A stretch of DNA of 28,748 nucleotides from Candidatus Hadarchaeales archaeon. GTDB taxonomy: Archaea; Hadarchaeota; Hadarchaeia; Hadarchaeales; Hadarchaeaceae. Position 1 is the first letter of the stretch. Every line of letters begins with the position of its first letter. Shown here piece after piece: positions 7,774 through 23,945 of the stretch. The translations under genes and the position numbers were made by a program. The DNA lies in the NCBI GenBank assembly GCA_038851075.1, contig JAWCLG010000012.1, positions 1 through 28,748 on the forward strand. Reading direction: 5' to 3'. The notes below the pieces were generated by a model. The model did no database searches. It had not been told where the DNA came from and was given only the letters and a program-made list of their open reading frames with translations.

Positions 7774-8154
7774 TCAGGAGGCCTTTTTGAACTCTATGCT
7801 GACGAACTTTGGAGTCGCAATGACCTTGGAGTCCGTCAGGCGGCCGACGTTCCCTCCGATCGCGTGGCATATTCCCTTTATCTGATCTATGGCCCTCTTA
7901 AGCTCCTCCGGGTTCTGGCTCATCAACGCGCTTATCTCGATTACCATAATATTTCCGTTCTTCAGTTCCTCCGCTATCTCCTGCACATCGAGCAGACTGC
8001 GCATCTCTATGCTCTTTATGTATATCGGCTCTATCTCAGCGTTTGGCTTTGAGGTCTTTGAATCGATTTCCACGACCGGAACCTCCGTGGCACCTACCGA
8101 TGGAGAGTCACCGCCAAAAATTCTTCTTATTGCCCTCAACCTCTCACCTATCAC
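7774..8154 (-). CDS. sepF: Cell division protein SepF (archaeal)
   Basis: N-terminal amphipathic helix (LRAIRRIFG); core ELKNGNIMVIEI...LKRAIDQIKGI...GGNVGRL...VIATP. Confidence 0.88.
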   Translation of the reverse strand: MIGERLRAIRRIFGGDSPSVGATEVPVVEIDSKTSKPNAEIEPIYIKSIEMRSLLDVQEIAEELKNGNIMVIEISALMSQNPEELKRAIDQIKGICHAIGGNVGRLTDSKVIATPKFVSIEFKKAS

Positions 8155-8209
8155 TTTAAGTCTCTCATTGCTATTTAACTTTACTGTGCATGACCGAAGT
8201 GCCTCCTAC

Positions 8210-8683
8210 TCACTCCAACAGTTTCCATATGCGGTCACCAACGTGATGTATGGTCCTGATAACCTTGCCTTTCGGCGCAACCATTTCCCCGGAATCCACC
8301 AGAGCAATCCCGACGGCGATCGGTTTTCCGTGTCTCTCGTCCACGACCGCCACGCAGACGCCGGCTACTATCCCGGGATCCGCCCTTCTAACGCCCGGAG
8401 CCATGACATCCGCACCTGCCGCAACGTGCGGTACTGCCCCCATGTCCACCGTCACCCTCGGAAGTACGGCTCCTTCCAAAAGCGCATGAACTGTCGGACA
8501 GAATCTGCCCTCATGTTCGAACAGCAACGGCTTTTTTCCTGCCACGATTATTATTTCACCGCTGTCCAGCTCCATCATCTCTGCATTCTCAAGACTTTCC
8601 GGCCTTATGCCAAAACCTGAAGAAAGGAGCACAACCTCCTTCATCTCCCTTTTCCTCGGCCTGTACCTCCTGATAACTGGCAG
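8210..8683 (-). CDS. DUF1947/PUA domain RNA-binding protein (MCT-1-like)
   Basis: VTVDMGAVPHVAAGADVMAPGV, IHHVGD motifs; ORF track starts at 8644, but a CTG at 8683 behind SD GGAGGTG restores a basic N-terminus. Confidence 0.88.
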   Translation of the reverse strand: MPVIRRYRPRKREMKEVVLLSSGFGIRPESLENAEMMELDSGEIIIVAGKKPLLFEHEGRFCPTVHALLEGAVLPRVTVDMGAVPHVAAGADVMAPGVRRADPGIVAGVCVAVVDERHGKPIAVGIALVDSGEMVAPKGKVIRTIHHVGDRIWKLLE

Positions 8684-8785
8684 TTTCGCACCTCCTGACT
8701 TAACTTTTAAGAATATCTCTGGATATATGCCACCCGGTCTCCCAGAAAGGTTAAAATATCGGTCTGATGATGATGTGATGATTCG

Positions 8786-9010
8786 ATGACGCAGAGACCG
8801 CTAGACGTGCTGAACAGGGCGCTCGGGTCCTCGGTGCTGGTCGGACTCAAAGGAGGAAGGGAGCTGAGGGGAAAGCTCTCCGGATTCGACGTACACGTTA
8901 ATCTGGTTCTCGAGGAAGCCGAGGAGATACAGGGCGGAGAGGCCGTCAAGAGATATGGGGTCATGGTTATCAGGGGAGACAGCGTCGTTTACATTTCTCC
9001 AGCGGGCTGA
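8786..9010 (+). CDS. Sm-like archaeal protein SmAP1
   Basis: RPLDVL...[22 protein letters not shown]...[11 protein letters not shown]; conserved adjacency to eL37. Confidence 0.95.
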
Positions 9011-9015
9011 GGCGG

Positions 9016-9201
9016 ATGGTCAAGGGAACTCCTTCAATGGGGAAGCGTCACAAGGTACAGCACATACGTTGCCGGAGATGCGGAAGACGCGCTTACCACG
9101 CCCAGAAGGGAGTGTGCGCGGCATGCGGCTACGGAAAATCCAGGAAGATAAAACGCTACAGCTGGAAGAACAAAAAGGTCCAGGGACTGCGGCTGAAGTA
9201 A
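9016..9201 (+). CDS. rpl37e: 50S ribosomal protein eL37
   Basis: KGTPSMGKR...[13 protein letters not shown]...CAACGYG...RYSW. Confidence 0.97.
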
Positions 9202-9447: not shown

Positions 9448-9624
9448 CAAATATTAAAACAGGTTTTTCGCGGGATCGGGCTGGATATGGCTATAAAAGG
9501 TACAGCAACTAGGAATGTGGGGAAACATGGGCGAAAGCGAGTTGATGCCATTCGGTCGCGCGGATAAAAAGACATGCGCATCATCTTCAAACAGGGGTAC
9601 TGTAAAAAAGGACGCCTGACAGCC

Positions 9625-10806
9625 ATGAAGCGGATTCTGCCGGCGTTTATCATCTCATTCCTCATTCTCGCGCTAGCGTCCGGGGCGGCCTTGGCCTCGG
9701 TAGAAAACGCGGGAGTGACCCCAGAGAACGGACCGTGGACTTATGAATTCACGTTCTACATGAGCTACAGGGGCGAGTCTGGAATCGATATTAAACCTGA
9801 ATATCCCCTGCTGTACCTTGATAGCGTCGGGATTCCGATGTCTGAAAACGATCCTTTTGATAATGACGCCTCCGATGGAAAAATCTATGTGCTCACATGG
9901 CGGCCGGGCGCTGAAAACGTCGGCCCGCATTCGTTCTATTTCGTGGCCGTTTTAGAAAACGATGATGTGATAAGATTTCCATCCGAGGGTGAGATCGAAG
10001 GACCGGACGTACTTAGAGTGAAGCCGCTGTTCATCTGTTCGGTTTCAAAAAGTGAGGCCATGCCCGGTGAGAAAGTGACGATCTCGGGAACTGTCGTGAC
10101 AGCTGATGAAAACCTGCCGATCAGCGGGTCCGATCTAGAGGTTTACCAGATGGTATATGAAAATGAGATTCTCGCCGGAAGCACCAGAACCGGGCCCGAC
10201 GGTGAATTCTCGATGGAGGTGCAACCTCAGGAACAGGGCATCTACTGCTACAGGGTCAGGATCACAGATAACCTGCACTACGAGGAACCTGTTTCTAAGA
10301 GGCTTTACGTGTCGACCATAGATAAAGTAACTTTGCTGCTCGGATATTCGGGAGCACTCGCCGTGATAGCCGTGATCCTGTGCGTCCTTATAACATCTGG
10401 CCTTGGAAGAAAGAACGCCATAGCAATCTCTGTGCTCGGAGCAATTATCGGATTTTTGCTGATGTACCTTGGTGCCGGAGAACTTGGAGTGCTCGCAGCC
10501 GGGGCAATATCCGGATACATATGGTCAAAAAACTCACGCGAGTGGAGCAAGCACGTGAGGATGGGAATCGCCACAGGGATCATAATCGTGTTTATAGTGG
10601 GTACGCTTCTCGCCTACCTGCTAACGCTTCCACCGGATTTAATCGGGTTCGTCTTTTCCGTCACGCAGGGAGAGATGACCTCATATCTGATCCAGTGGGC
10701 CATATCATCAATCTTCATGTTTCTTGCGCTCGCGGCACTGGGCGCGATAATCGGGGGGCTCATCCGCAAGCTCTTAAACCCTCAGGTGAAAGAGGTTCAG
10801 CGGTAG
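9625..10806 (+). CDS. Hypothetical membrane protein: signal peptide, Ig-like extracellular domains, C-terminal multi-TM region
   Basis: MKRILPAFIISFLILALASGAALA signal peptide from 9625; acidic beta-rich ectodomain (PGEKVTISG, TGPDGEF); about 5 Gly-rich TM helices. Confidence 0.75.
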   Translation: MKRILPAFIISFLILALASGAALASVENAGVTPENGPWTYEFTFYMSYRGESGIDIKPEYPLLYLDSVGIPMSENDPFDNDASDGKIYVLTWRPGAENVGPHSFYFVAVLENDDVIRFPSEGEIEGPDVLRVKPLFICSVSKSEAMPGEKVTISGTVVTADENLPISGSDLEVYQMVYENEILAGSTRTGPDGEFSMEVQPQEQGIYCYRVRITDNLHYEEPVSKRLYVSTIDKVTLLLGYSGALAVIAVILCVLITSGLGRKNAIAISVLGAIIGFLLMYLGAGELGVLAAGAISGYIWSKNSREWSKHVRMGIATGIIIVFIVGTLLAYLLTLPPDLIGFVFSVTQGEMTSYLIQWAISSIFMFLALAALGAIIGGLIRKLLNPQVKEVQR

Positions 10807-10858: not shown

Positions 10859-10887
10859 GGCAGCATGGAGTGCCCGCCGGGCTCATA

Positions 10888-10921
10888 AGGCGTCGGATTT
10901 TGTGTCCGACACTCCTGCGAT
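10888..10921 (+). other. tRNA-iMet intron 2 (canonical 37/38, 34 nt)
   Basis: Bulges TA|A and AT|A, central helix CTCA/TGCG (U:C mismatch), hairpin GTCGGA...TCCGAC. Confidence 0.88.
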
Positions 10922-10929
10922 ACCCGGAG

Positions 10930-10959
10930 ACGCCTGTGTGTAAATCTCAGGCGCCGGAA
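10930..10959 (+). other. tRNA-iMet intron 3 (position 45/46, 30 nt)
   Basis: Bulges AG|A and AA|G, perfect central helix CCGG/CCGG, 6-bp inner helix CGCCTG/CAGGCG. Confidence 0.88.
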
Positions 10960-10973
10960 GTCGGTGGTTCAAG

Positions 10974-11001
10974 AGGGGACGGCAAAAACGTCCTCTGGGA
11001 T
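10974..11001 (+). other. tRNA-iMet intron 4 (position 59/60, 28 nt)
   Basis: Strict BHB: bulges AG|A and AT|T, central TTCA/TGGG, 7-bp inner helix GGGGACG/CGTCCTC, outer helix = T stem. Confidence 0.88.
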
Positions 11002-11049
11002 TCCACCCCCCGCTACCACAAAATGCGGCATGTCTGCATTCGATCAATA

Positions 11050-11673
11050 ATGGTGGGACTGATGCTGACAACCATACTGATAATGATACCGGCCATCTTC
11101 CTGCTCGGTCCAGGAGGAGGGGCGGTCATCGCGCTGAGCAAAGGTATACCCCCGGCCGAAACTATGTTGCTCGTGAGCGCAATACACGCCGGACTGGTTC
11201 CGGTGTGGTTTGGAATTTTCGAACTCATCCACTACACGCTAAGATACAACAAGAGAATAATCGACATGATCTCAAGACGCGTAAAAATCGGGAGGAAAAT
11301 CACGAAAAACGCAAACTCGAACATCCAGGAGTTCGAGAGGAGAGTGGGACAGTGGGGACTAGGGCTCGGCACGGTCGCGTTCACCTTCGTATTCGGCATC
11401 TCATGGGCAGCGCTCATCGCATACATGATGAACATCAAGGAGAGAACGATATTTCTGTCGGTTACTGCGGGGGCCATAGCCTCGGCGATATTCTGGACCG
11501 CTGTTTATTCAGGTCTCACCTGGCTCGTGCCCAACATATGGATGGTCTACGTTGCGGGCTTAATCATGGCCCTCGGAGTGATGACGTACAACAGCGGAAA
11601 GGAACGCAGAGTCGTTGAAGAAATGGCAAAATCTCTCGATAAAATAATAGGCCATGGGCGGAAATCTACCTGA
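11050..11673 (+). CDS. Membrane protein, COG2426/small multidrug export-like
   Basis: GAVIALSKGIPP...LVPVW and GISWAALIAYMM segments resemble COG2426; true start must lie after the tRNA (11023, 11050 or 11062), not 10870. Confidence 0.65.
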   Translation: MVGLMLTTILIMIPAIFLLGPGGGAVIALSKGIPPAETMLLVSAIHAGLVPVWFGIFELIHYTLRYNKRIIDMISRRVKIGRKITKNANSNIQEFERRVGQWGLGLGTVAFTFVFGISWAALIAYMMNIKERTIFLSVTAGAIASAIFWTAVYSGLTWLVPNIWMVYVAGLIMALGVMTYNSGKERRVVEEMAKSLDKIIGHGRKST

Positions 11674-12820
11674 GCATGTCTTTCCTGTAAAGATATTCGG
11701 CAGCGAGAACCGCTCCTCTAGCAGCTCCGAGCTCCGTGTTGTGCGATAGTACCGTGTACTGGAAGCCCCTCTCGAATGAATTTGCCTCCACACCTCCAAT
11801 GGCAACGACCATTCCTCCACCGATCATGCAGTCGAACCTTGGCTGCGGCCTGTCTCTTTCTTCCATGACCACTATTGGTCTCTCAGGAGCGTTTGGCAGC
11901 TTCAACCTCTGGGGCTCGCTCACATAATTCATCCATGCCTCTTTCAGGTCGGCCACATCGCACCTCTTGGAGGTCTGAATGAAAACAGACTCGGTGTGTC
12001 CGTGAAGCACCGGGACCCTGTTGCACTTGCAGGTTATCCTGAACCCGGCGGGCTCTATTCTGCCATTTTTCAGATTTCCAAGTATTCTAACGGTTTCCCT
12101 TTTCACCTTATCTTCCTCCTTCTCGATGTACGGTATCACGTTTCCCTCAAACGTACCCGGAACAAAGGAATCCTGCTCGAAAGGAAGACCGGGCCCCTGG
12201 GCCATTCTCTGCTCCTCCCACCTGGAAACGGCAGCGTAACCAGCTCCTGAAACCGCCTGCATTGATGCCATGATCACGCTTTCCAGCCCGAAGGCATCGT
12301 AAACCGGCTTGAGCGAAAGGGCTAGTCCTATGGTCGTGCAGTTAGGCTGCGGCACGACGAATCCCTTCCAGCCTCGGTTTTTCCTCTGGACCTCAATCAT
12401 GTCAAGGTGGGACTCGTTAACCCCGGGAAGATACGTGAAACTGTCATCGAAATAGCGAAACGCAGAGGCCGTGCTGACCACCGGTTTTTTCTTCGCCACC
12501 TCCCCCTCGACCTCCAGCGCAACTTCGGACGGTAGGGCTGAGAAGAACACATCCGCCTCATCCGCCTTAACTTCACCGACATTTCCGACTCTGATCTCAA
12601 GCACATTGCTCTCGGGTTTTGCATTCAGGAACCACCTTGAATTTTTTCCACCGTAATCAAGGGCTTCCGCGTATGACCTGCCCGCGGACCTGCCCGAGGC
12701 GTACAGCGCAACTATTTCGAACCATGGATGCCTCTGAAGATTGAACACGAACTTTTGCCCGACCTCTCCAGTTGCACCCAGAATTCCCGCTCTGAGCCTA
12801 TCCATTGACATCCGAATCAT
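11666..12820 (-). CDS. asd: Aspartate-semialdehyde dehydrogenase (archaeal/eukaryotic type)
   Basis: GATGEVGQ, HPWFE, FSALP, catalytic PNCTT, QAVSGAG, NVIPYI, RVPVLHGH, RPQPR, SHN..GAA. Confidence 0.95.
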   Translation of the reverse strand: MIRMSMDRLRAGILGATGEVGQKFVFNLQRHPWFEIVALYASGRSAGRSYAEALDYGGKNSRWFLNAKPESNVLEIRVGNVGEVKADEADVFFSALPSEVALEVEGEVAKKKPVVSTASAFRYFDDSFTYLPGVNESHLDMIEVQRKNRGWKGFVVPQPNCTTIGLALSLKPVYDAFGLESVIMASMQAVSGAGYAAVSRWEEQRMAQGPGLPFEQDSFVPGTFEGNVIPYIEKEEDKVKRETVRILGNLKNGRIEPAGFRITCKCNRVPVLHGHTESVFIQTSKRCDVADLKEAWMNYVSEPQRLKLPNAPERPIVVMEERDRPQPRFDCMIGGGMVVAIGGVEANSFERGFQYTVLSHNTELGAARGAVLAAEYLYRKDMLR

Positions 12821-12858
12821 TTACAACACCTCTGATAAAAAAGATACGGGGAAAAGAA

Positions 12859-12981
12859 ATGCCACGAAGGAAGTACGGACACATGGTTGGACCTCTGCCA
12901 ACACCGCCACCGCCTGAAAAGTGCAGGTTCTGCAGGCGCGGGATTCCATGTCCATACCACAAAAAAGCTGAAAAACGGTGA
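12859..12981 (+). CDS. Putative 40-aa basic zinc-finger microprotein (CxxC-x5-CxxH)
   Basis: Manual translation MPRRKYGHMVGPLPTPPPPEKCRFCRRGIPCPYHKKAEKR*; lies wholly in the dapB-asd gap; GATAAAA about 20 nt upstream. Confidence 0.55.
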   Translation: MPRRKYGHMVGPLPTPPPPEKCRFCRRGIPCPYHKKAEKR

Positions 12982-12998
12982 GCTGAAAGCCGTGCGTT

Positions 12999-13775
12999 TT
13001 ATTTGAGTCCAAGGACGTCCTGCATATCGTGTACTACTCCAGGCTTTCCGCTTTTCACCACGTAACGGATGGCCCTTATAACTCCTGCAGCGAACGCCTC
13101 CCTGCTGTGCGCCCTGTGAGTAACCTCTATTCGCTCCTCCGGCCTCGAGAATATCACAGTATGGTCCCCCACAATCTCTCCTTCTCTGATTGACCGAATC
13201 TTTATTTCTCCAGCGTCTTTTTTCAGCGCTCTCGCTATCATTTGCGCAGCTTTTTTTGCAGTGCCGCTCGGTGCATCCTTTTTGTGAATGTGGTGGACCT
13301 CAACAATCTCCACATCGTACTCGTCTCCAAGCATCCTGGCCGTGTTCTCCACGGACCTGAAGAAAACGTTTACGCCGACAGACATGTTTGGAGATATGAC
13401 TGCACGTATCCTTGACCTCCTGATGGCCCTGCTAATCGTTCTGAATTGATCCTTTGTGAATCCCGTGGTTCCAACCACCACGGAGACTCCTTCATCCGCA
13501 GCCGTTTTTATGTTCTCAACCGCGGCTGTGGCGTTGGTGAAATCAACCAGCACATCAGGCTTTGATTTTCTGATCACGGAAGCCAGATCATCAGCCCCAA
13601 CTATTTTGACACCAAGCCTCCCAGCTCCGGTCATCTCACCCGCGTCCTTTCCTATGTCCTGACATCCTGGGGCATCAACTGCGCCAACCAACTTCATATC
13701 CCTCTGCCTAGATATGCTCCGGATTATTAACTGTCCCATCCGCCCGCACGCGCCGCAGACAACTACTCCTATCAC
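12999..13775 (-). CDS. dapB: 4-hydroxy-tetrahydrodipicolinate reductase
   Basis: GACGRMG, VDFT, VGTTG, PNMSVG, EVHHIHKKDAPSGTA, GDH, HRAHSREAFAAG. Confidence 0.96.
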   Translation of the reverse strand: MIGVVVCGACGRMGQLIIRSISRQRDMKLVGAVDAPGCQDIGKDAGEMTGAGRLGVKIVGADDLASVIRKSKPDVLVDFTNATAAVENIKTAADEGVSVVVGTTGFTKDQFRTISRAIRRSRIRAVISPNMSVGVNVFFRSVENTARMLGDEYDVEIVEVHHIHKKDAPSGTAKKAAQMIARALKKDAGEIKIRSIREGEIVGDHTVIFSRPEERIEVTHRAHSREAFAAGVIRAIRYVVKSGKPGVVHDMQDVLGLK

Positions 13776-14656
13776 TTTCGCACCAGCTTCATCTCGACCA
13801 GCAGCTTGCGCAGCTTTTCTCTGTTTTCAGACTCCATCTCAACAAGGGGGAGCCTGAGACCCCCTGCCGGCATTCCCATCATGTTCATAGCAGTCTTGAT
13901 TGGGGCTGGATTCGTCTCTATGAAAAGCGCCTTGAAAAGCGGCGCCAGCTTTTTGTTTATCTCCTCAGCTTTTTTCACGTTTCCTGACCTGAACGAATCT
14001 ACAAGATTCACTATCTCGCCCGGCACTATGTTAGATGCAACAGAAACCACTCCCACTCCCCCAAGTTTCATTATCTCAAGGGTGTCAGAGTCGTTTCCTG
14101 ACGTGACGACAAAATCCTTCCCCCTGGTAATCTCGATTATCCTAGAAACCTGCTTCATGTCACCAGTGGCCTCCTTAACCCCGACGACGTTTTTAAGGTC
14201 TGCAAGCTTCGCCATTGTTTCAGGGAGCATGTTCACTCCTGTCCTTGACGGGATATTGTAGATTACCTGCGGGATGTCCACCTCCTCAGCGATTTTCTTG
14301 AAGTGCGCATACAAACCGGCCTGCGTCGGCCTGTTGTAGTAAGGCACAACGATCAGAGCACCATCTGCGCCGACCTCCTTCGCATGCCTTGTAAGCATGA
14401 TTGCCTCCCACGTGCTGTTGCTTCCTGTCCCCGCAAGCACAGGGACTCTGCCACTCGCAGCCTCAACAACCAGCTCAACAACACGATTGTGCTCCTCGTA
14501 CGATAGAGTTGAGCACTCCCCTGTGGTCCCAACCGGAACCAAGCCATGTATGCCGTTTTTTATCTGGAACTCCACGTTCTTTTTAAGCCCTTTTTCGTCT
14601 ACCTCTCCGTCCTGACCGAAGGGAGTAATCATCGCAGTATACGCTCCTTCAAACAC
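13772..14656 (-). CDS. dapA: 4-hydroxy-tetrahydrodipicolinate synthase
   Basis: GTTGE, PYYNRP, YNIPSRTG, catalytic VKEA, ETNPAPIK, LRLPL. Confidence 0.96.
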   Translation of the reverse strand: MFEGAYTAMITPFGQDGEVDEKGLKKNVEFQIKNGIHGLVPVGTTGECSTLSYEEHNRVVELVVEAASGRVPVLAGTGSNSTWEAIMLTRHAKEVGADGALIVVPYYNRPTQAGLYAHFKKIAEEVDIPQVIYNIPSRTGVNMLPETMAKLADLKNVVGVKEATGDMKQVSRIIEITRGKDFVVTSGNDSDTLEIMKLGGVGVVSVASNIVPGEIVNLVDSFRSGNVKKAEEINKKLAPLFKALFIETNPAPIKTAMNMMGMPAGGLRLPLVEMESENREKLRKLLVEMKLVRK

Positions 14657-14666
14657 CGGGCCTCAC

Positions 14667-15887
14667 CTAAACCTTCATCATGCCCTCTCTGAAAAGCTTG
14701 AGCGCTCTTTCTCTGTCCTCCCATTTGACAAAAAAGCTTATCGAAGCTCTGCTCGAGAGTATCTCGACTATGTTGATTCCGGCTCTCGCCACGGGCTCCG
14801 TGAGCTTTGCTATAACTCCAGGAGTGTAGATGAACTTCTCGCTCTGTGCAGTTATCATGGCAAGGCCGTCCTCACTTGTAACTGCCTTCATGTGCCTATC
14901 CCTTACCACAACCCCGTGAACAAGCTTCAATGCCCTTTCCGCGTCCTCGCCTGAAACGTAAACGGAAAACGACCTGGGACCTATGGAGACGCCAAATATA
15001 TTGACCCCGGCCCGGCTCAGCGGTGTGGCAACCTTGGTCAGAATGCCCGGAGTGCGCTGCATCTCCTCTCCGACAACAGTCAGCATTGAGAGCATTTTAC
15101 CGTAAAGCTCGACTCCCTCGGCCTCATTCTCCTTTGGTCCAACTATAACAGTCCCCTCCGCACTCAGATTTCCGTGCCTGAAGTGTATAACCTTTGCTTT
15201 TATCTTTGGATCTTTGTAGTTCATTGCCCTGGGGTGCATTACCTTGGCACCGAACCTCGCCAAATCCCTCAGCTCCTCCACTGTTATTTTAGGGAGGATC
15301 TTGGCCTCGCTTACGATATTCGGATCTGTGGTCATCACTCCATCAACATCCGAGACAATTATCGTCTCATCTGCGCCTATGCATTTTCCCACCACGAATC
15401 CGGTGATGTCACTTCCGCCTCTCCCTATCGTCGTTATGTCCCCGGATCTGGTGCGTCCTAGAAATCCGCATATGACCGGCACGATTCCTCTCCTGAGCAG
15501 GGGGACGATGTACTTCCTCGTCCTCCTGACCGTCTCCTCTATGTCGATATTGGCGCTGCCGAATCCGTCATCCGTGATCACCGGCCATCTTCCGTCCCTT
15601 GGGTCAATAAACTCTGACGGGACGCCTAACCTTTGTAATGCTGCTGAAAACACCCTGACGCTGGACCTTTCCCCGAGGGCCATTATGAAGTCCAAGTCTT
15701 TTCTATCCGCAACGCCGCACCTCTTCGCTGCTTCTATAAGGGCATCTGTCGTGTGGCCCATAGCAGAAACTACCACGGCGACCCTGTTTCCCCTCCTGTA
15801 TTCTCTCTCAACCGCCCTAGCGCAGAGAAGAACACGTTCAACATTTCCAACGCTCGTACCGCCGAACTTTACGGATATTGTCCTCAA
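14667..15887 (-). CDS. lysC: Aspartate kinase with two ACT domains
   Basis: KFGGTSV, VVSAMGHTTD, GRGGSD, DVDGV..DP, GAKVMHPRA; C-terminal ACT repeats. Confidence 0.95.
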   Translation of the reverse strand: MRTISVKFGGTSVGNVERVLLCARAVEREYRRGNRVAVVVSAMGHTTDALIEAAKRCGVADRKDLDFIMALGERSSVRVFSAALQRLGVPSEFIDPRDGRWPVITDDGFGSANIDIEETVRRTRKYIVPLLRRGIVPVICGFLGRTRSGDITTIGRGGSDITGFVVGKCIGADETIIVSDVDGVMTTDPNIVSEAKILPKITVEELRDLARFGAKVMHPRAMNYKDPKIKAKVIHFRHGNLSAEGTVIVGPKENEAEGVELYGKMLSMLTVVGEEMQRTPGILTKVATPLSRAGVNIFGVSIGPRSFSVYVSGEDAERALKLVHGVVVRDRHMKAVTSEDGLAMITAQSEKFIYTPGVIAKLTEPVARAGINIVEILSSRASISFFVKWEDRERALKLFREGMMKV

Positions 15888-17192
15888 CTACAACCACCGG
15901 GGTATCCTGTCAAGCTGCGTTATGTATTCAAACGTCTCTCTTTCACGTATCAACTCGGCCCTTCCACCTTTAACCATCACAGCTGCGGGGCGCGACTGGG
16001 CCGTGTGCTGGTTCGACATTGAAAGCCCGTATGCTCCCACATCGAATATTGCCGCAATGTCTCCTTGCTCAGGTCTCTGAAGCATTCTTTCCTTTCCCAA
16101 GAAATCGCCTGACTCGCACAGGGGCCCGGCAACGTTCGCCAGCACATCGTTTTTATCTGAAATCTTGTTTGCAAGTTCTATGTGGTGGTAGGCGCCGTAT
16201 AACGCCGGCCTGATCAGGGCGTTTATTCCTCCATCCACAGAAACCCACACCGGCATTCCCGGTCTTTCCTTCACATAACCCACTCTGGCAAGCAGCACCG
16301 TGGAGTCTCCGACAATGTATCTGCCCGGCTCAAAGCAGAGCGTGATGTCCCGGATGCCTTTTTCCTCGGCCACCCTTCTGACAACCTCGACCATCGCCTC
16401 TGCCACTTCACCGGGCTGCAGCTCCTTATCCTCGGGCCTGTACGGGATTCCTATTCCGCCTCCAAAGTCAACGTGAGAGAGATTTATTCCTGCTCTGTCC
16501 CTGATCTCAACCACCAGTGCCATCAGCTTCTCCGCCTCCTCCACAAACGGGGCCACATCCAGAAGCTGCGACCCTATGTGAGCATGAATCCCTACCACCT
16601 CGACCTCCTTCATTCTCGCGGCCGTTCTATACGCCTCCAAAGCCTGTCCGCTGGGAACATCAAAGCCGAACTTGCTCTCCCTGAGACCGGTCGCTATGTA
16701 TGGGTGCGTGGAGACCCTCACATCGGGGTTTACGCGAAAACTCACCCTGGCGCGCTTTCCGAGCTTGGTAGATATTTTGCCGACAAGAGAAAGCTCCTGA
16801 AAACTGTCAACATTTATAAGCACCCCGTTTGCTATCGCCATCTCAAGTTCTCTCTCCGTCTTATGGTTTCCGTTGAAAACCATTTTATCCGGATGAATTC
16901 CGGCCTTAAGCGCTATTCTGAGCTCGTTAATCGAGCTCACATCCGCTCCTGACCCCTCGCTCTGAAGCACCTTCACTATAGCGCTGTTGAAATTTGCCTT
17001 AAGCGCGTAGAAAACCGTCACTTTCGGCCATCTTTCAGAAAATGCCCTGTAAAATCTGCGGTACTTTTCCCTTATTCTGTCCTCGTCCGTGACGTAGAGC
17101 GGGGTCCCGTATCGCTCCGCAAGGTCAACGGCGTCCGCCCCGCCTATCACGAGGTGTCCGCTGGTGTTTACGCTGAAGTGTGATTTCAGCAT
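15888..17192 (-). CDS. lysA: Diaminopimelate decarboxylase
   Basis: YGTPLYV, PLP lysine YALKAN, SKFG, HIGSQ, GGG, EPGR, GPLCESGD, GAYG; ATG 17192 overlaps upstream stop (GTG 17198 possible). Confidence 0.96.
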   Translation of the reverse strand: MLKSHFSVNTSGHLVIGGADAVDLAERYGTPLYVTDEDRIREKYRRFYRAFSERWPKVTVFYALKANFNSAIVKVLQSEGSGADVSSINELRIALKAGIHPDKMVFNGNHKTERELEMAIANGVLINVDSFQELSLVGKISTKLGKRARVSFRVNPDVRVSTHPYIATGLRESKFGFDVPSGQALEAYRTAARMKEVEVVGIHAHIGSQLLDVAPFVEEAEKLMALVVEIRDRAGINLSHVDFGGGIGIPYRPEDKELQPGEVAEAMVEVVRRVAEEKGIRDITLCFEPGRYIVGDSTVLLARVGYVKERPGMPVWVSVDGGINALIRPALYGAYHHIELANKISDKNDVLANVAGPLCESGDFLGKERMLQRPEQGDIAAIFDVGAYGLSMSNQHTAQSRPAAVMVKGGRAELIRERETFEYITQLDRIPRWL

Positions 17193-18541
17193 CAGCACCT
17201 GCGCTCGACCTCCCTTATGGAATCCTCCAGTATATCAAGGCCAAGCTCCAGATCTCTCTCGGGGATAGTTAGAGGTGGGGCGATCCTTATGGATGACTTT
17301 CCTCCTCTAAAGAGCAGCAGTCCGCGCCTGAGCGCCTCCTGCATGACCATTTCTCTCTGATCTACACCGGGCTCCTTTGTCCTTTTGTCGCTCACGAACT
17401 CGAGCGCCATCAGAAAACCGAGACCCCTCGCCTCTCCAACTATCCTTGAACTCTGCTCAATCTCCTGGAGACGTTTCAACGCCTTGCTGCCGAGCCTTGC
17501 GACCCTATCAACAAGATTTTCCTCCTCAATGATCTTCAATCCCTCAACGGCTACCGCACAGGCCAGAATGTTGCCGCCGAAGGTGGATGCGTGCGCTCCA
17601 GGCTTCCAGTCCATGACCTCCTCTGAGGCCACTGTGGCTCCGAGCGGTGCAATCCCTCCCGCCAGTCCCTTCGCCAGGCATATTATGTCCGGGACAACCT
17701 TCCAGTGATCTATGGAAAACATCTTCCCGGAACGGCCGAGACCTGCCTGCACCTCATCTGCTATGAATATCCAGCCGTTTTCCTCACACAGCTCTTTGAG
17801 CATCGGATAAAAGTCCGGCGGTGGAATGATGTATCCGGATGTTCCCTGCACGGGCTCTGTTATAACGGCTGCAACCTCGTCCGCCGGAATCCTGTCCTTT
17901 ACTGCCTTCATTATGTACTCTATGCACATATGTGAGACCTCTGATGGCTTCCATCCCATCGGAGGCCTGTAAGGATTCGGAAAAGGCATGAAGCTCACCC
18001 CGGGAACAAGCGGGGCGAACTTCTCCGAGTATTTCACGTTGCTGGTCAGGCTGAGCGCGCCCATCGTACGTCCGTGGAAACCTCCTTCAAACGCTATCAT
18101 CCTCGGGCGCCCGGTGTGCCACCTAACGCACTTGAAAGCTGCCTCCACGGCCTCGGTTCCGCTGTTCCCGAGGTAGACTCGCTTATTGAACTTCCCTGGA
18201 GTGATTTTAACGAGGCGCTCCGCAAGCTCAACCTGCGCCTCGTAGTAATAGTCAGTTCCGGCGAAGTGCGTGATCTTTCTGAGCTGCCTCTCTGCCGCAC
18301 GGATGATACGTGGATTCGAGTAACCATAATTAACAACGAACATTCCTGAGGTCAGGTCAAGTATGACGTTACCGTCCACGTCTCTCAGGTAGCATCCCCA
18401 TCCCTCCTCGGCGACCACCGGTTCAGCCCGTGTGTATGACTGCGATATCACCTTCTGATCCCTGGCAAGAATCTTCTTGGCCTTTGGGCCTGGTATCTGT
18501 TTTACTATCTTCGGACCTCTCCCAAGCCACTTTGGCTTCAC
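17192..18541 (-). CDS. Class III PLP aminotransferase (GABA/ornithine aminotransferase-like), first gene of lysine operon
   Basis: IPGPKA, DVDGN, AGTDYY, NSGTEA, FHGRT, DEVQ, AKGL, STFGGN, IRIAPPL; atypical EPVQGTSG. Confidence 0.9.
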   Translation of the reverse strand: MKPKWLGRGPKIVKQIPGPKAKKILARDQKVISQSYTRAEPVVAEEGWGCYLRDVDGNVILDLTSGMFVVNYGYSNPRIIRAAERQLRKITHFAGTDYYYEAQVELAERLVKITPGKFNKRVYLGNSGTEAVEAAFKCVRWHTGRPRMIAFEGGFHGRTMGALSLTSNVKYSEKFAPLVPGVSFMPFPNPYRPPMGWKPSEVSHMCIEYIMKAVKDRIPADEVAAVITEPVQGTSGYIIPPPDFYPMLKELCEENGWIFIADEVQAGLGRSGKMFSIDHWKVVPDIICLAKGLAGGIAPLGATVASEEVMDWKPGAHASTFGGNILACAVAVEGLKIIEEENLVDRVARLGSKALKRLQEIEQSSRIVGEARGLGFLMALEFVSDKRTKEPGVDQREMVMQEALRRGLLLFRGGKSSIRIAPPLTIPERDLELGLDILEDSIREVERRC

Positions 18542-18684
18542 TTCAACACCTTCTTACAAATCTGCTCTGCATATTTAAAAAACAGGGAGATGTTGCCTAT
18601 AAGCCCATATTGTGGAGGTCCTAAAATGAAGGGCCCACTGGGTTGTTTTATTTACCTGTAGAACTGAGATTTTCTGGGTTCACA

Positions 18685-19584: not shown

Positions 19585-19708
19585 AAGGCGAATATTCGGC
19601 GTGAAGATATGCATGCGCTGTAAATCACACAACCCGCTGAAGGCCACGAAGTGCAGGAAGTGCGGTTATTCCGGGCTAAGGCCGAAGTCGAGGGAGCAGC
19701 GTGCCTAG
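19562..19708 (+). CDS. rpl40e: 50S ribosomal protein eL40 (missed by ORF track, 48 aa)
   Basis: [48 protein letters not shown]. Confidence 0.95.
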
Positions 19709-20456
19709 TGTGGAGGAAAAGCTCCGCTCTGTCATAAAAAAAGACGGAGCCGCCCACCTCACTCTGATAGATCCGGAAAAGCAGGACCCATATGACGCCG
19801 GGATGATTGCGGTTGAGGCAGAGGACGCTGGCACCAACGGAATAATGGTGGGTGGATCCACTCACGCGACCGGAGAGGTCCTTGACCAGACCGTCTTATC
19901 CATAAAGAAAAAAACCGATCTTCCAGTGATACTGTTTCCACCGGGAGAATCCGGGATATCAAAACACGCCGACGCAATATTCTTCATGAGCATGCTGAAC
20001 TCAACAGACCCCTACTTTCTCTCGGAGGCACAGGCGAGGGGGGCCCCGCTCGTGAAGAAATTCGGGATAGAGCCGATACCCATGGGATACATTTTGATAG
20101 AACCGGGGGGAACTGTGGGAAAGATCGGTAAGGCCAAGCTGATCCCGAGAAAAAGCGTTGATCTCGCGGTTTCGTATGCGCTGGCCGCTCAGTATTTCGG
20201 CATGCGATTTGTTTATCTCGAGGCCGGATCTGGGGCTAACGCTCCCGTACCCATTGAGATGGTAGAGGCGGTAAGAAAAAACACAGATGTGACATTGATA
20301 GTCGGTGGCGGTATAAGAACCCCTGAGGCGGCAAAAGAAAGAGTGAAAGCTGGTGCCGATATAATAGTTACCGGGACGATAGTGGAAGATGCAGGCCTGC
20401 GCACAAAAATGCTCTGTGAGATAATAGAAGCTATTAAATCATGCGCCTGTGCTTAG
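19701..20456 (+). CDS. Geranylgeranylglyceryl phosphate synthase (group II)
   Basis: [56 protein letters not shown]. Confidence 0.95.
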
Positions 20457-22501: not shown

Positions 22502-22727
22502 TGGGCTGGCCTCCTTTACGGTCATAAAAAATTTATTCACATTATAAAGTAATCGCGGGTGAAATAAAGCTTTGTAAAGGATTAAGGGGATTTTTAGCGC
22601 TTGTTTTTATGCCCGGATATAAAGTTTATTTAAATCATTTTTCGGACGAGGTTTAACCGTAATCAATGAACCCGCGCGCGATAGGGGCCGCGGTGGGAGC
22701 TTGACCCGAAAGAAAAAAGGTGAAAAA

Positions 22728-23945
22728 ATGAACGCAAAAATCGGGGCAATTGCGATGCTGGTGCTGGTAGCGACGGCAGCTGTGCCTGCTGTCGGAGCTG
22801 ACACCTACGAGGAGGCAAGAATCAGATATCTGACCGAGAGGGCTGAACTTCTGCAGCAGATTTCCACATGGGAGACCGCAAGAGCCGGATTCCTGCAGGC
22901 TGTATCTAACTGGAGAGGCAACCGAACAGAGTCGAATCTGAATCAGGTCATGCAGGCGGCCAAGAGTTCTGTAGCGGCCATGGGGGACGTTATGATCCAG
23001 TATATGGAGATGCTGAAAATCAGGATAGAGGCCACAAGAGGGCTGTCCGACGAGGAAAAGACCGAATTCTGCGATGAAATAGACGGTTACGTTGATGCGC
23101 TGGAGGGGATGAAGATCTCGGTGCAGAACGCCGGGAACGCGCAGGAGATCAGGACAACCACAAGAGCGCTTTGGAACCACTGGCTGCAGATCCGCGTCAG
23201 GCTAAAGTACATTACCGGCAGGGTGTTAATCGCGGATGCTGAGGCAGCTCTCTGGAGAGTCCAGGCATTTGCGGCGCGTATTGAGGCAAAGATTGCGGAG
23301 CTACAGGAAAACGGCGTTGACACCTCTGCGCTTGAAAGCTGGCTCGCAGAATTGAACTCCAGGCTGGAGACTGCGGAGCAGAGAATAGAAAATGCAAAAT
23401 CCAAAGTTGAGGAGATCACGGACAATATAACCTTTCTGCAGATGTTCGCCGCTGCAGACGCCTACATCAGGGATGCCATCAGATACCTCAGGGAGGCGCT
23501 CAGAAACCTGCAAGAGATAATATTTGAGATGATATCCGGCGGCCACACTGTGACGGTCAGCGGGTCCGGCACGCTCGTTGCCTGGGGCAACGGTAGCGCC
23601 CACATCTCCGTCACGGGCGCAGTTCACGTCAGGGCAAGAATAGAGGGAACCATGATTGTCTCACCGGACGCAAACGTGGTGACATCCGGAACCGGAACTA
23701 GGACTGAGCTCGAAAACGGCTGGGTGCAGTACGAAGGATACGGTGGTGCGGTTGTGACTGGAAATGAGATAACAGTTGACATCAGCGGGACTGGCATCCG
23801 TCTGGTCGTCTGCGGAACGGGGACAGCGACCCTGACCGGGACCGGAGGATTCAGAACTTACGGAGTTAGCCGCTACGAGGCGGAAAACTGGAATGCAGAG
23901 GGATACACAGTTGACCTGGAAACGGGCGGTTACACCTCTACTTAG
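22728..23945 (+). CDS. Hypothetical secreted protein: long helical/coiled-coil region plus Gly/Thr-rich beta domain
   Basis: SD AGGTGA before ATG 22728; signal peptide MNAKIGAIAMLVLVATAAVPAVGA; amphipathic helices then repeated (L/V)xAxGxG strands. Confidence 0.8.
   Translation: MNAKIGAIAMLVLVATAAVPAVGADTYEEARIRYLTERAELLQQISTWETARAGFLQAVSNWRGNRTESNLNQVMQAAKSSVAAMGDVMIQYMEMLKIRIEATRGLSDEEKTEFCDEIDGYVDALEGMKISVQNAGNAQEIRTTTRALWNHWLQIRVRLKYITGRVLIADAEAALWRVQAFAARIEAKIAELQENGVDTSALESWLAELNSRLETAEQRIENAKSKVEEITDNITFLQMFAAADAYIRDAIRYLREALRNLQEIIFEMISGGHTVTVSGSGTLVAWGNGSAHISVTGAVHVRARIEGTMIVSPDANVVTSGTGTRTELENGWVQYEGYGGAVVTGNEITVDISGTGIRLVVCGTGTATLTGTGGFRTYGVSRYEAENWNAEGYTVDLETGGYTST

Follow-up and report, generated by a model that had tools for sequence, protein, structure and literature searches.

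Four textbook routes lead from tetrahydrodipicolinate (THDP) to meso-diaminopimelate (meso-DAP), namely the succinylase, acetylase, Ddh, and DapL routes. Ddh yields only meso-DAP, and ArgD, a class III aminotransferase, serves as DapC in Escherichia coli, so that class III already takes part in one route to diaminopimelate (DAP). Two described class III enzymes of the Thermococcales, PH1423 of P. horikoshii and TK2101 of T. kodakarensis, transaminate the omega-amine of L-/D-ornithine and L-/D-lysine with 2-oxoglutarate, according to the available part of PMC9986279. The window analysed here is a stretch of 28,748 bp that constitutes the whole contig C12 (JAWCLG010000012.1) of a Hadarchaeota metagenome-assembled genome (MAG) of 1,009,249 bases in 29 contigs, 88% complete and designated G000. 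It contains an operon in which a gene encoding a class III aminotransferase (AT) precedes lysA, lysC, dapA, dapB, and asd. Comparison of 65 Hadarchaeota genomes from five families, 25 of them of high quality, suggests that AT is probably a neofunctionalised class III THDP:glutamate aminotransferase that replaces DapL, DapD/DapC/DapE, or Ddh and feeds LysA.

Known diaminopimelate enzymes and linkage of the aminotransferase to lysA

Gene identities were assigned from NCBIfam and Pfam matches evaluated against curated cut-offs. In G000, no match was obtained for DapF (TIGR00652; PF01678 at E up to 1) or for Ddh. With the DapL models (TIGR03540 and TIGR03542), the best score for DapL was 212 bits vs. 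a cut-off of 593 and that for plant-type DapL 68 bits vs. 365, both from an aspartate-aminotransferase-like gene on contig C9; the other match was HisC. The best DapH score (53 bits vs. 232) came from a gamma-carbonic-anhydrase-like hexapeptide protein. The second class III gene of G000, located on C1, is a bona fide ArgD (TIGR00707, 470 bits vs. 410), and the sole M20 protein is ArgE-like. The original prediction, made from the window alone, had noted that dapL, dapD/dapC/dapE, ddh, and dapF were missing there and had proposed a genome search for dapL, dapD, dapE, dapF, and ddh; no dapF, dapL, ddh, or dapD/dapH was found in the window or in G000, the search recovered no complete canonical set in G000, and the gap proved to be class-wide.

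LysA exceeded its cut-off in 59 of the 65 genomes. DapF was present in six, comprising five of the seven genomes of genus g14 and G057 (4 of the 25 high-quality genomes), and Ddh (TIGR01921) in three (G012, G015, and G021). DapL exceeded its cut-off in none of the 65; a DapL-like gene (390–409 bits) lies directly beside dapF in five g14 genomes, the best matches outside g14 scored 240–300 bits, and 16 genomes, including G000, gave no match to the DapL models at E ≤ 1e-70. The DapF of G057 is only 35% identical to that of g14, and judging from this divergence the two probably arrived separately. DapD was over its cut-off in 0 of 5 genomes searched, and DapH in 0 of 6, including G000. The near-closed relatives G024 (3 contigs), G043 (9 contigs), and G061 (4 contigs) lack every known enzyme tested; therefore, the gap is a property of the lineage and not an artefact of the G000 assembly.

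At a threshold of E ≤ 0.01, none of 5 genomes searched, G000 among them, had the LysW carrier protein (0 of 5), which makes the aminoadipate route to lysine unlikely. Genes for homoaconitase/isopropylmalate-isomerase subunits, an isopropylmalate-synthase/homocitrate-synthase-like enzyme, and an isocitrate/homoisocitrate-dehydrogenase-like enzyme occur beside the DAP operon of G043 (L030:1985-6146), and a homocitrate/isopropylmalate-synthase-like gene occurs beside the aspartate-aminotransferase-like gene on C9 of G000 (L001:2692-3948). Away from the operon, several relatives also have another LysA-family gene that exceeds the TIGR01048 cut-off (445–479 bits; Table 1).

Orthologs of AT, defined by at least 52% identity to the window protein, were found in 55 of the 65 genomes, and G050, with a C-terminal fragment located at the end of a contig, raises the number to 56. 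Judged by coordinates, 49 of the 55 have AT immediately before a lysA of the same orientation; in G006 and G007, lysA starts just before the contig end downstream of AT, giving a total of 51 of 55. This outcome of the synteny check suggested by the original prediction places the arrangement far beyond chance. In G052 and G060, the AT locus is cut by contig ends, and only in G030 and G031, which belong to one genus, are AT and lysA truly separated. The lysA-to-asd block of these two genomes now stands behind an XdhC-like gene (in G030, L167:4277-5086 and L165:4720-6075), and AT was left by itself, with the NAD(P)H-hydrate dehydratase gene as its neighbour, as in the window. The six-gene order is complete in four of the five families; the fifth (G061 and G064) keeps only the AT–lysA pair. 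A third conserved neighbour was sought around the isolated pair of G061, where only glutamine synthetase, HisF, and other unrelated genes were present. Suspected AT pseudogenes in g14 were dismissed, as the 'stops inside' G051 and G049 are natural stop codons at residues 447–448 and the genes are intact.

Ten genomes gave no ortholog-grade AT match, and six of them (G013, G014, G022, G023, G027, and G032) could not be assessed owing to a lack of lysA or its position at a contig edge. Only three genomes had an intact operon that starts at lysA and lacks AT: two with Ddh (G012 and G015) and one with the DapL-like protein and DapF (G048). AT is thus missing in 3 of 8 genomes with a complete known route vs. 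0 of 51 assessable genomes without one. Among close relatives, the locus is colinear at about 90% nucleotide identity (blastn) in G021 (AT and Ddh), G024 (AT only), and G015 and G012 (Ddh only). The sole difference is the stretch 7850–9137 of G021, which is missing from G015 and G012 and falls on the AT gene (7824–9179). The LysA proteins of the Ddh-only genomes are 92–93% identical to that of the AT-only G024, and 0 of 452 alignment columns separate seven AT-only LysAs from three LysAs of genomes with only an alternative route. Since no alignment column sets these two groups of LysA apart and Ddh makes only meso-DAP, the AT route most likely ends in meso-DAP too.

Residue signature and phylogeny of the aminotransferase

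PF00202 is the sole Pfam family of AT, its match covering residues 41–441 (379 bits vs. a gathering score of 30.5). The closest solved chain was 7vno (402 bits), followed by 2eo5; the racemase chains 9wqz (Ala/Ser racemase) and 9wrf (broad-specificity racemase) scored 296 and 288 bits, respectively. We take 7vno to be PH1423 from its P. horikoshii-style title. The AGTDYY motif pointed out in the original prediction is located at residues 94–99 and is common to AT and 7vno, which upholds the likeness to Thermococcales ornithine omega-aminotransferases drawn there.

Residue statistics were obtained from an alignment of 121 sequences, comprising the window AT and its 120 best homologs. K291, D262, R158 (the Arg of FHGRT), and R419 (the C-terminal Arg) were invariant in all 121, and GNSGTEA was located at residue 125. 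Presumably, K291 is the lysine that binds pyridoxal 5'-phosphate (PLP), D262 pairs with the pyridine nitrogen, and the GxSGxEA motif binds the phosphate; F155 is taken to correspond to the Tyr that caprolactam racemase uses. M67-F68, Y72, Y74, D97, T234, and R412 were also marked as key residues. Residue 234, Thr in the window, is T/S/N in 109 of the 121 sequences and Glu only in canonical homologs with 47–49% identity. The lysA-linked clade has thereby changed QGEGG to QG(T/S/N)(S/A)G, and GIAV.N.GH to GMFV.NYGY. Compared with the PH1423/TK2101-type motifs, AGTDYY is kept and both QGEGG and GIxV.N.G(H/L) are altered. Arg occupies position 412 in 101 of the 121 sequences, and 14 of the 20 sequences lacking it belong to the lysA-linked clade.

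Position 234 lies 57 residues before the PLP Lys, the same spacing as between E235 and K292 in hOAT and between E243 and K300 in YgjG, and aligns with the Glu of QGEGG in the ArgD of G000. In hOAT and YgjG, this Glu is salt-bridged to the conserved Arg (E235–R413 in hOAT), a switch that bars the Arg from the omega-amino substrate and frees it for the alpha-carboxylate of 2-oxoglutarate, as stated in the available parts of PMC9136103 and PMC4244111. Of this Glu–Arg pair, which marks omega-aminotransferases with dual substrate recognition (OAT, GABA-AT, YgjG, and ArgD), AT keeps the Arg (R419) and has lost the Glu.

The signature and the linkage were compared in an independent sample of 80 metagenome homologs with their fetched flanks. 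The Glu was present in 75 of the 80, and in none of these 75 was lysA or another DAP gene found within the flanks. The remaining five have S/N; in four of them the next gene is lysA, and the fifth is truncated by the end of its contig. The signature therefore tracks lysA linkage perfectly in this sample. In the phylogenetic tree, the lysA-linked proteins formed one clade, sister to canonical Thermoplasmatota/Methanomassiliicoccales homologs and apart from ArgD and from a second Hadarchaeota paralog clade. Within the g14-like subclade, whose genomes have the DapL-like protein and DapF, the change of D97 to His occurred together with the loss of R412 in 10 of 10 sequences, which suggests drift once a second route was present.

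The second Hadarchaeota class III clade (L060–L069, e.g., L064:5004-6353) shares 42–47% identity with AT and is marked by GIAVTNVGH, NSCDFY, and QGAGG. It was rejected as a partner of general importance in the pathway, being found in only about 24 of the 65 genomes and not in G000.

Proposed reaction and alternative explanations

In the proposed reaction, AT would descend from archaeal ornithine/lysine omega-aminotransferases, and L-glutamate would aminate ring-opened THDP (L-2-amino-6-oxopimelate) to DAP, which would be passed to the translationally coupled LysA. DAP is lysine with an extra carboxylate on the reacting (omega) carbon. Once the switch Glu is lost, Arg419 may become available for the carboxylate that DAP or THDP bears on its reacting carbon, and R158 and D97 may hold the distal L-amino-acid end, as for ornithine or lysine. 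From the alignment we infer that the absence of the gate Glu would leave the Arg free in both half-reactions and would thus suit a substrate such as DAP with a carboxylate on the reacting carbon.

Candidates for the origin of the D-centre of meso-DAP are the same enzyme, through D-forming binding or side epimerisation, and a separate, perhaps promiscuous epimerase, in which case AT would form LL-DAP. E. coli without dapF grows normally, apparently via an epimerase of that kind, according to the available part of PMC13759103. That AT and Ddh have been exchanged one for one speaks for a solution with one enzyme. AT alone might convert THDP to meso-DAP with L-glutamate, either by flipped binding of the keto acid, which would give the new centre the D configuration as in the stereo-inverting D-phenylglycine aminotransferase, or by epimerising its own LL product; we put this forward tentatively, as possible rather than probable. 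If true, it would be a transaminase counterpart of Ddh and a fifth, DapF-free variant of DAP synthesis in almost the whole class.

Several candidates for a separate D-forming enzyme were considered and rejected. In G000, the only matches to PF01168 (alanine racemase/DapF2) were LysA, and matches of a non-LysA type were confined to G008, G009, G012, G015, G021, and G024. The Asp/Glu racemase family PF01177 was over its cut-off in only 7 of the 65 genomes, and PhzF and proline racemase were each found in 0 of 5. A D-amino-acid transaminase of fold type IV was also considered; of the two PF01063 genes of G000, one encodes IlvE (448 bits) and the other, beside PabB, is PabC-like. A PF01168 gene (about 411–440 aa, 47–52 bits) is common to all three Ddh genomes (Table 1), and G024, which has no Ddh, gave 61 bits.

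According to an alternative explanation, AT is only a PLP-dependent DAP epimerase that substitutes for DapF, and THDP is aminated by a promiscuous class I aminotransferase retained for other functions. This would agree with the presence of racemases in the family (9wqz and 9wrf), with DapF being the most consistently missing enzyme (59 of the 65 genomes), and with the loss of the switch Glu, as expected for an enzyme handling only alpha-amino acids; the AT losses, too, could be accounted for by a one-gene swap with Ddh or by redundancy with DapF, and a PLP-dependent substitute for DapF is already known in DapF2, a member of the alanine-racemase family (available part of PMC13759103). However, the Asp essential for the racemases (D234 of PH0782, of which the D234A variant is inactive; PMC6047364) aligns with T/S/N here, the racemases have lost the FHGRT Arg (YHGQT, YHGMT) and AT keeps it as R158, and the closest characterised homolog, PH1423, showed no racemase activity (PMC6047364). 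Furthermore, the class I aminotransferase that this explanation requires was not seen at DapL grade in any of the 65 genomes, 16 of which lack even the weaker matches noted above, and G057 would carry two epimerases. We consider it unlikely. An ordinary ornithine, lysine, or 4-aminobutyrate omega-aminotransferase acting in proline/ornithine metabolism or lysine turnover and merely co-transcribed with lysA is improbable. The best solved match is indeed an archaeal chain of the ornithine delta-aminotransferase type, the NCBIfam label reads only 'acetyl ornithine aminotransferase family', and AT stands apart from the operon in G030 and G031; yet the Glu, whose switch role is described in the available part of PMC9136103, is missing throughout the clade, canonical homologs never stood beside lysA (0 of 75), the deletion or absence of AT coincides exactly with the presence of another route from THDP to meso-DAP, and 51 genomes with intact dapA, dapB, and lysA would be left lacking the aminating step.

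It is very improbable that AT is a DapC-type N-acyl-2-amino-6-oxopimelate aminotransferase with an acyltransferase and a deacylase too diverged to be recognised, despite the E. coli precedent of ArgD, the carboxylate that N-acyl-DAP also bears on its reacting carbon, and an ArgE/DapE-family deacylase in G000 (C10:33499-34494; NF006370, 460 bits vs. 412; TIGR01910, 270 bits vs. 218). That M20 deacylase is not conserved, with G024, G043, and G061 giving only 21–25-bit matches, and neither DapD nor DapH was over its cut-off in the five and six genomes searched. Moreover, G000 has a separate ArgD and AT itself is below the TIGR00707 cut-off (332 bits), the acyl route would still require DapF, and the replacement by Ddh took only the AT gene out of the operon.

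Several points weigh against AT as the THDP:glutamate aminotransferase. All support for this role is comparative genomics and alignment, and the residue roles come from the alignment and from the literature numbering of other enzymes. The 88% completeness of G000 limits the absences seen in this genome, and the AT losses amount to only two or three events in kin genomes that are not independent. AT is not strictly exclusive of the known routes, coexisting with the DapL-like protein and DapF in four to five g14 genomes and with Ddh in G021. G057 has AT together with DapF, as would be expected if AT formed LL-DAP and epimerisation were still required; the other genomes yielded no epimerase. Taken alone, the comparative pattern fits equally well an enzyme that does nothing but epimerise DAP. 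R412, considered as a determinant unique to the clade, was weakened by the Arg that the ArgD of G000 aligns there and by the Pro of some orthologs. The original prediction that AT fills the DAP gap, by direct transamination of THDP or as an epimerase, was partly supported: the filling itself agrees, at the level of comparative genomics, with the class-wide absence, the coupling to lysA, and the losses, and AT may act in either of the two ways, of which the epimerase lacks the Asp that marks the racemases.

The class keeps DapA, DapB, and LysA, is almost throughout without the four known routes and DapF, and has an aminotransferase of another type joined to lysA. Three states of a natural non-orthologous displacement are represented: AT only, AT and Ddh, and Ddh only. 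Our literature searches yielded no paper that describes either DAP synthesis by a class III aminotransferase or the lysine synthesis of Hadarchaeota; the available text of the GapMind 2026 paper, which presents new DapE and DapF2 enzymes, has no such aminotransferase and does not contain 'class III' or 'Hadarchae'. If AT is the THDP:glutamate aminotransferase, it would add a variant to the DAP pathway and a new enzyme activity, the loss of one gate residue would turn an omega-aminotransferase into an alpha-aminotransferase, and the automatic annotation of Hadarchaeota MAGs as 'incomplete lysine synthesis / auxotroph' would be corrected.

Organization of the operon and comparison with known systems

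All six genes are located on the minus strand in the order AT–lysA–lysC–dapA–dapB–(gap)–asd (Table 1), in agreement with the co-oriented, mostly overlapping or abutting arrangement predicted originally. The reading frames of AT and lysA share 7 nt and those of dapA and dapB 4 nt; lysC follows lysA without a gap, and 10 nt separate lysC from dapA. GGTG lies 6–9 nt upstream of the GTG start of AT, and the TATA-like region further upstream is likely the operon promoter, judging from its letters. The spacer between dapB and asd has T-runs after dapB and a T-rich stretch before asd, from which we infer only that a terminator or promoter might lie there. The genes flanking the operon are housekeeping genes in divergent or convergent orientation, and the NAD(P)H-hydrate dehydratase gene flanks AT.

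Table 1. Features of the window and additional genes of relatives, with scores in bits vs. cut-off.
Feature	Position	Strand	Evidence or remark
Class III aminotransferase (AT), 449 aa	17192–18541	minus	PF00202, 379 bits; NF004426 'acetyl ornithine aminotransferase family', 554.3 vs. 552
lysA, diaminopimelate decarboxylase	15888–17198	minus	TIGR01048, 500 bits vs. 298; PF02784 and PF00278
lysC, monofunctional aspartate kinase	14667–15887	minus	NF005159, 482 bits vs. 379; Pfam AA_kinase and two ACT domains
dapA, 4-hydroxy-tetrahydrodipicolinate synthase	13772–14656	minus	TIGR00674, 382 bits vs. 206
dapB, 4-hydroxy-tetrahydrodipicolinate reductase	12999–13775	minus	TIGR00036, 279 bits vs. 122
dapB–asd spacer, 178 nt, without open reading frame	12821–12998	minus	read from sequence
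asd, archaeal-type aspartate-semialdehyde dehydrogenase	11666–12820	minus	TIGR00978, 355 bits vs. 301; NF006416, 366 vs. 232
Putative operon promoter region	18547–18580	minus	TATA-like TTTAAATA about 35 nt upstream of the AT GTG start
GGGP synthase	19701–20456		archaeal marker in the window
Extra LysA-family genes of relatives	G061:C1:399231-400478; G043:C4:24888-26135; G059:C9:23422-24684; also G062–G064		
PF01168 gene of Ddh genomes	G012:C19:5322-6023; G015:C10:7271-7972; G021:C10:33119-33820		

A CsaB-like pyruvyl-transferase gene (TIGR03609, 80 bits, below the cut-off) is inserted between dapB and asd in G024 (L029:5045-6100), G012 (L046:14072-15115), and G015. It was dismissed as a source of the missing step, since it occurs in G024 and in G012 and has no counterpart in G000. 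Four open reading frames of the window (9574–10806, 10870–11673, 22701–23945, and 7889–8620) gave no family match or only sub-threshold ones (DUF5518, 20 bits; Sm_multidrug_ex, 28 bits).

With PH1423 and TK2101, AT shares the class III fold, the H(F/A)AGTDYY motif, the FHGRT Arg, the PLP Lys, and the C-terminal Arg. It differs from them in having QG(T/S/N)(S/A)G in place of QGEGG and GMFV.NYGY in place of GIxV.N.G(H/L), in the gained R412, in its linkage to lysA (0 of 75 among canonical homologs), and in forming a separate monophyletic clade. ArgD/DapC is likewise of class III, and the ArgD of G000 has an Arg at position 412; however, AT scored 332 bits against the TIGR00707 cut-off of 410, ArgD keeps QGEGG, and ArgD acting as DapC needs DapD and DapE, which are absent here. 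The fold-type I racemases (PH0782 for Ala/Ser, the broad-specificity PH0138, and the isoleucine 2-epimerase of Lactobacillus) belong to the same family, lack the switch Glu as well, and act on the alpha-carbon of amino acids. Their essential Asp, within QGDxG, precedes the PLP Lys by 57 residues; AT has Thr234 there, and the whole lysA-linked clade is devoid of acidic residues at that site.

D-phenylglycine aminotransferase of Pseudomonas stutzeri, which we take to be another class III enzyme, is likened to AT by description alone. It forms a D-amino acid from L-glutamate in one step, as reported in the available part of PMC3503884. Its substrate differs in being aromatic. The reaction proposed for AT, in which THDP and L-glutamate would give DAP and 2-oxoglutarate in one step and with no acyl intermediates, is the same as that of DapL (EC 2.6.1.83). 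DapL, presumably a member of the class I/II family PF00155, is an aminotransferase of another class and works with DapF, which is absent in G000. Ddh differs from AT in its unrelated fold and in catalysing an NADPH-dependent reductive amination with ammonia; it resembles AT in that it needs no DapF and in that the two have been interchangeable in evolution, as observed in G012 and G015.

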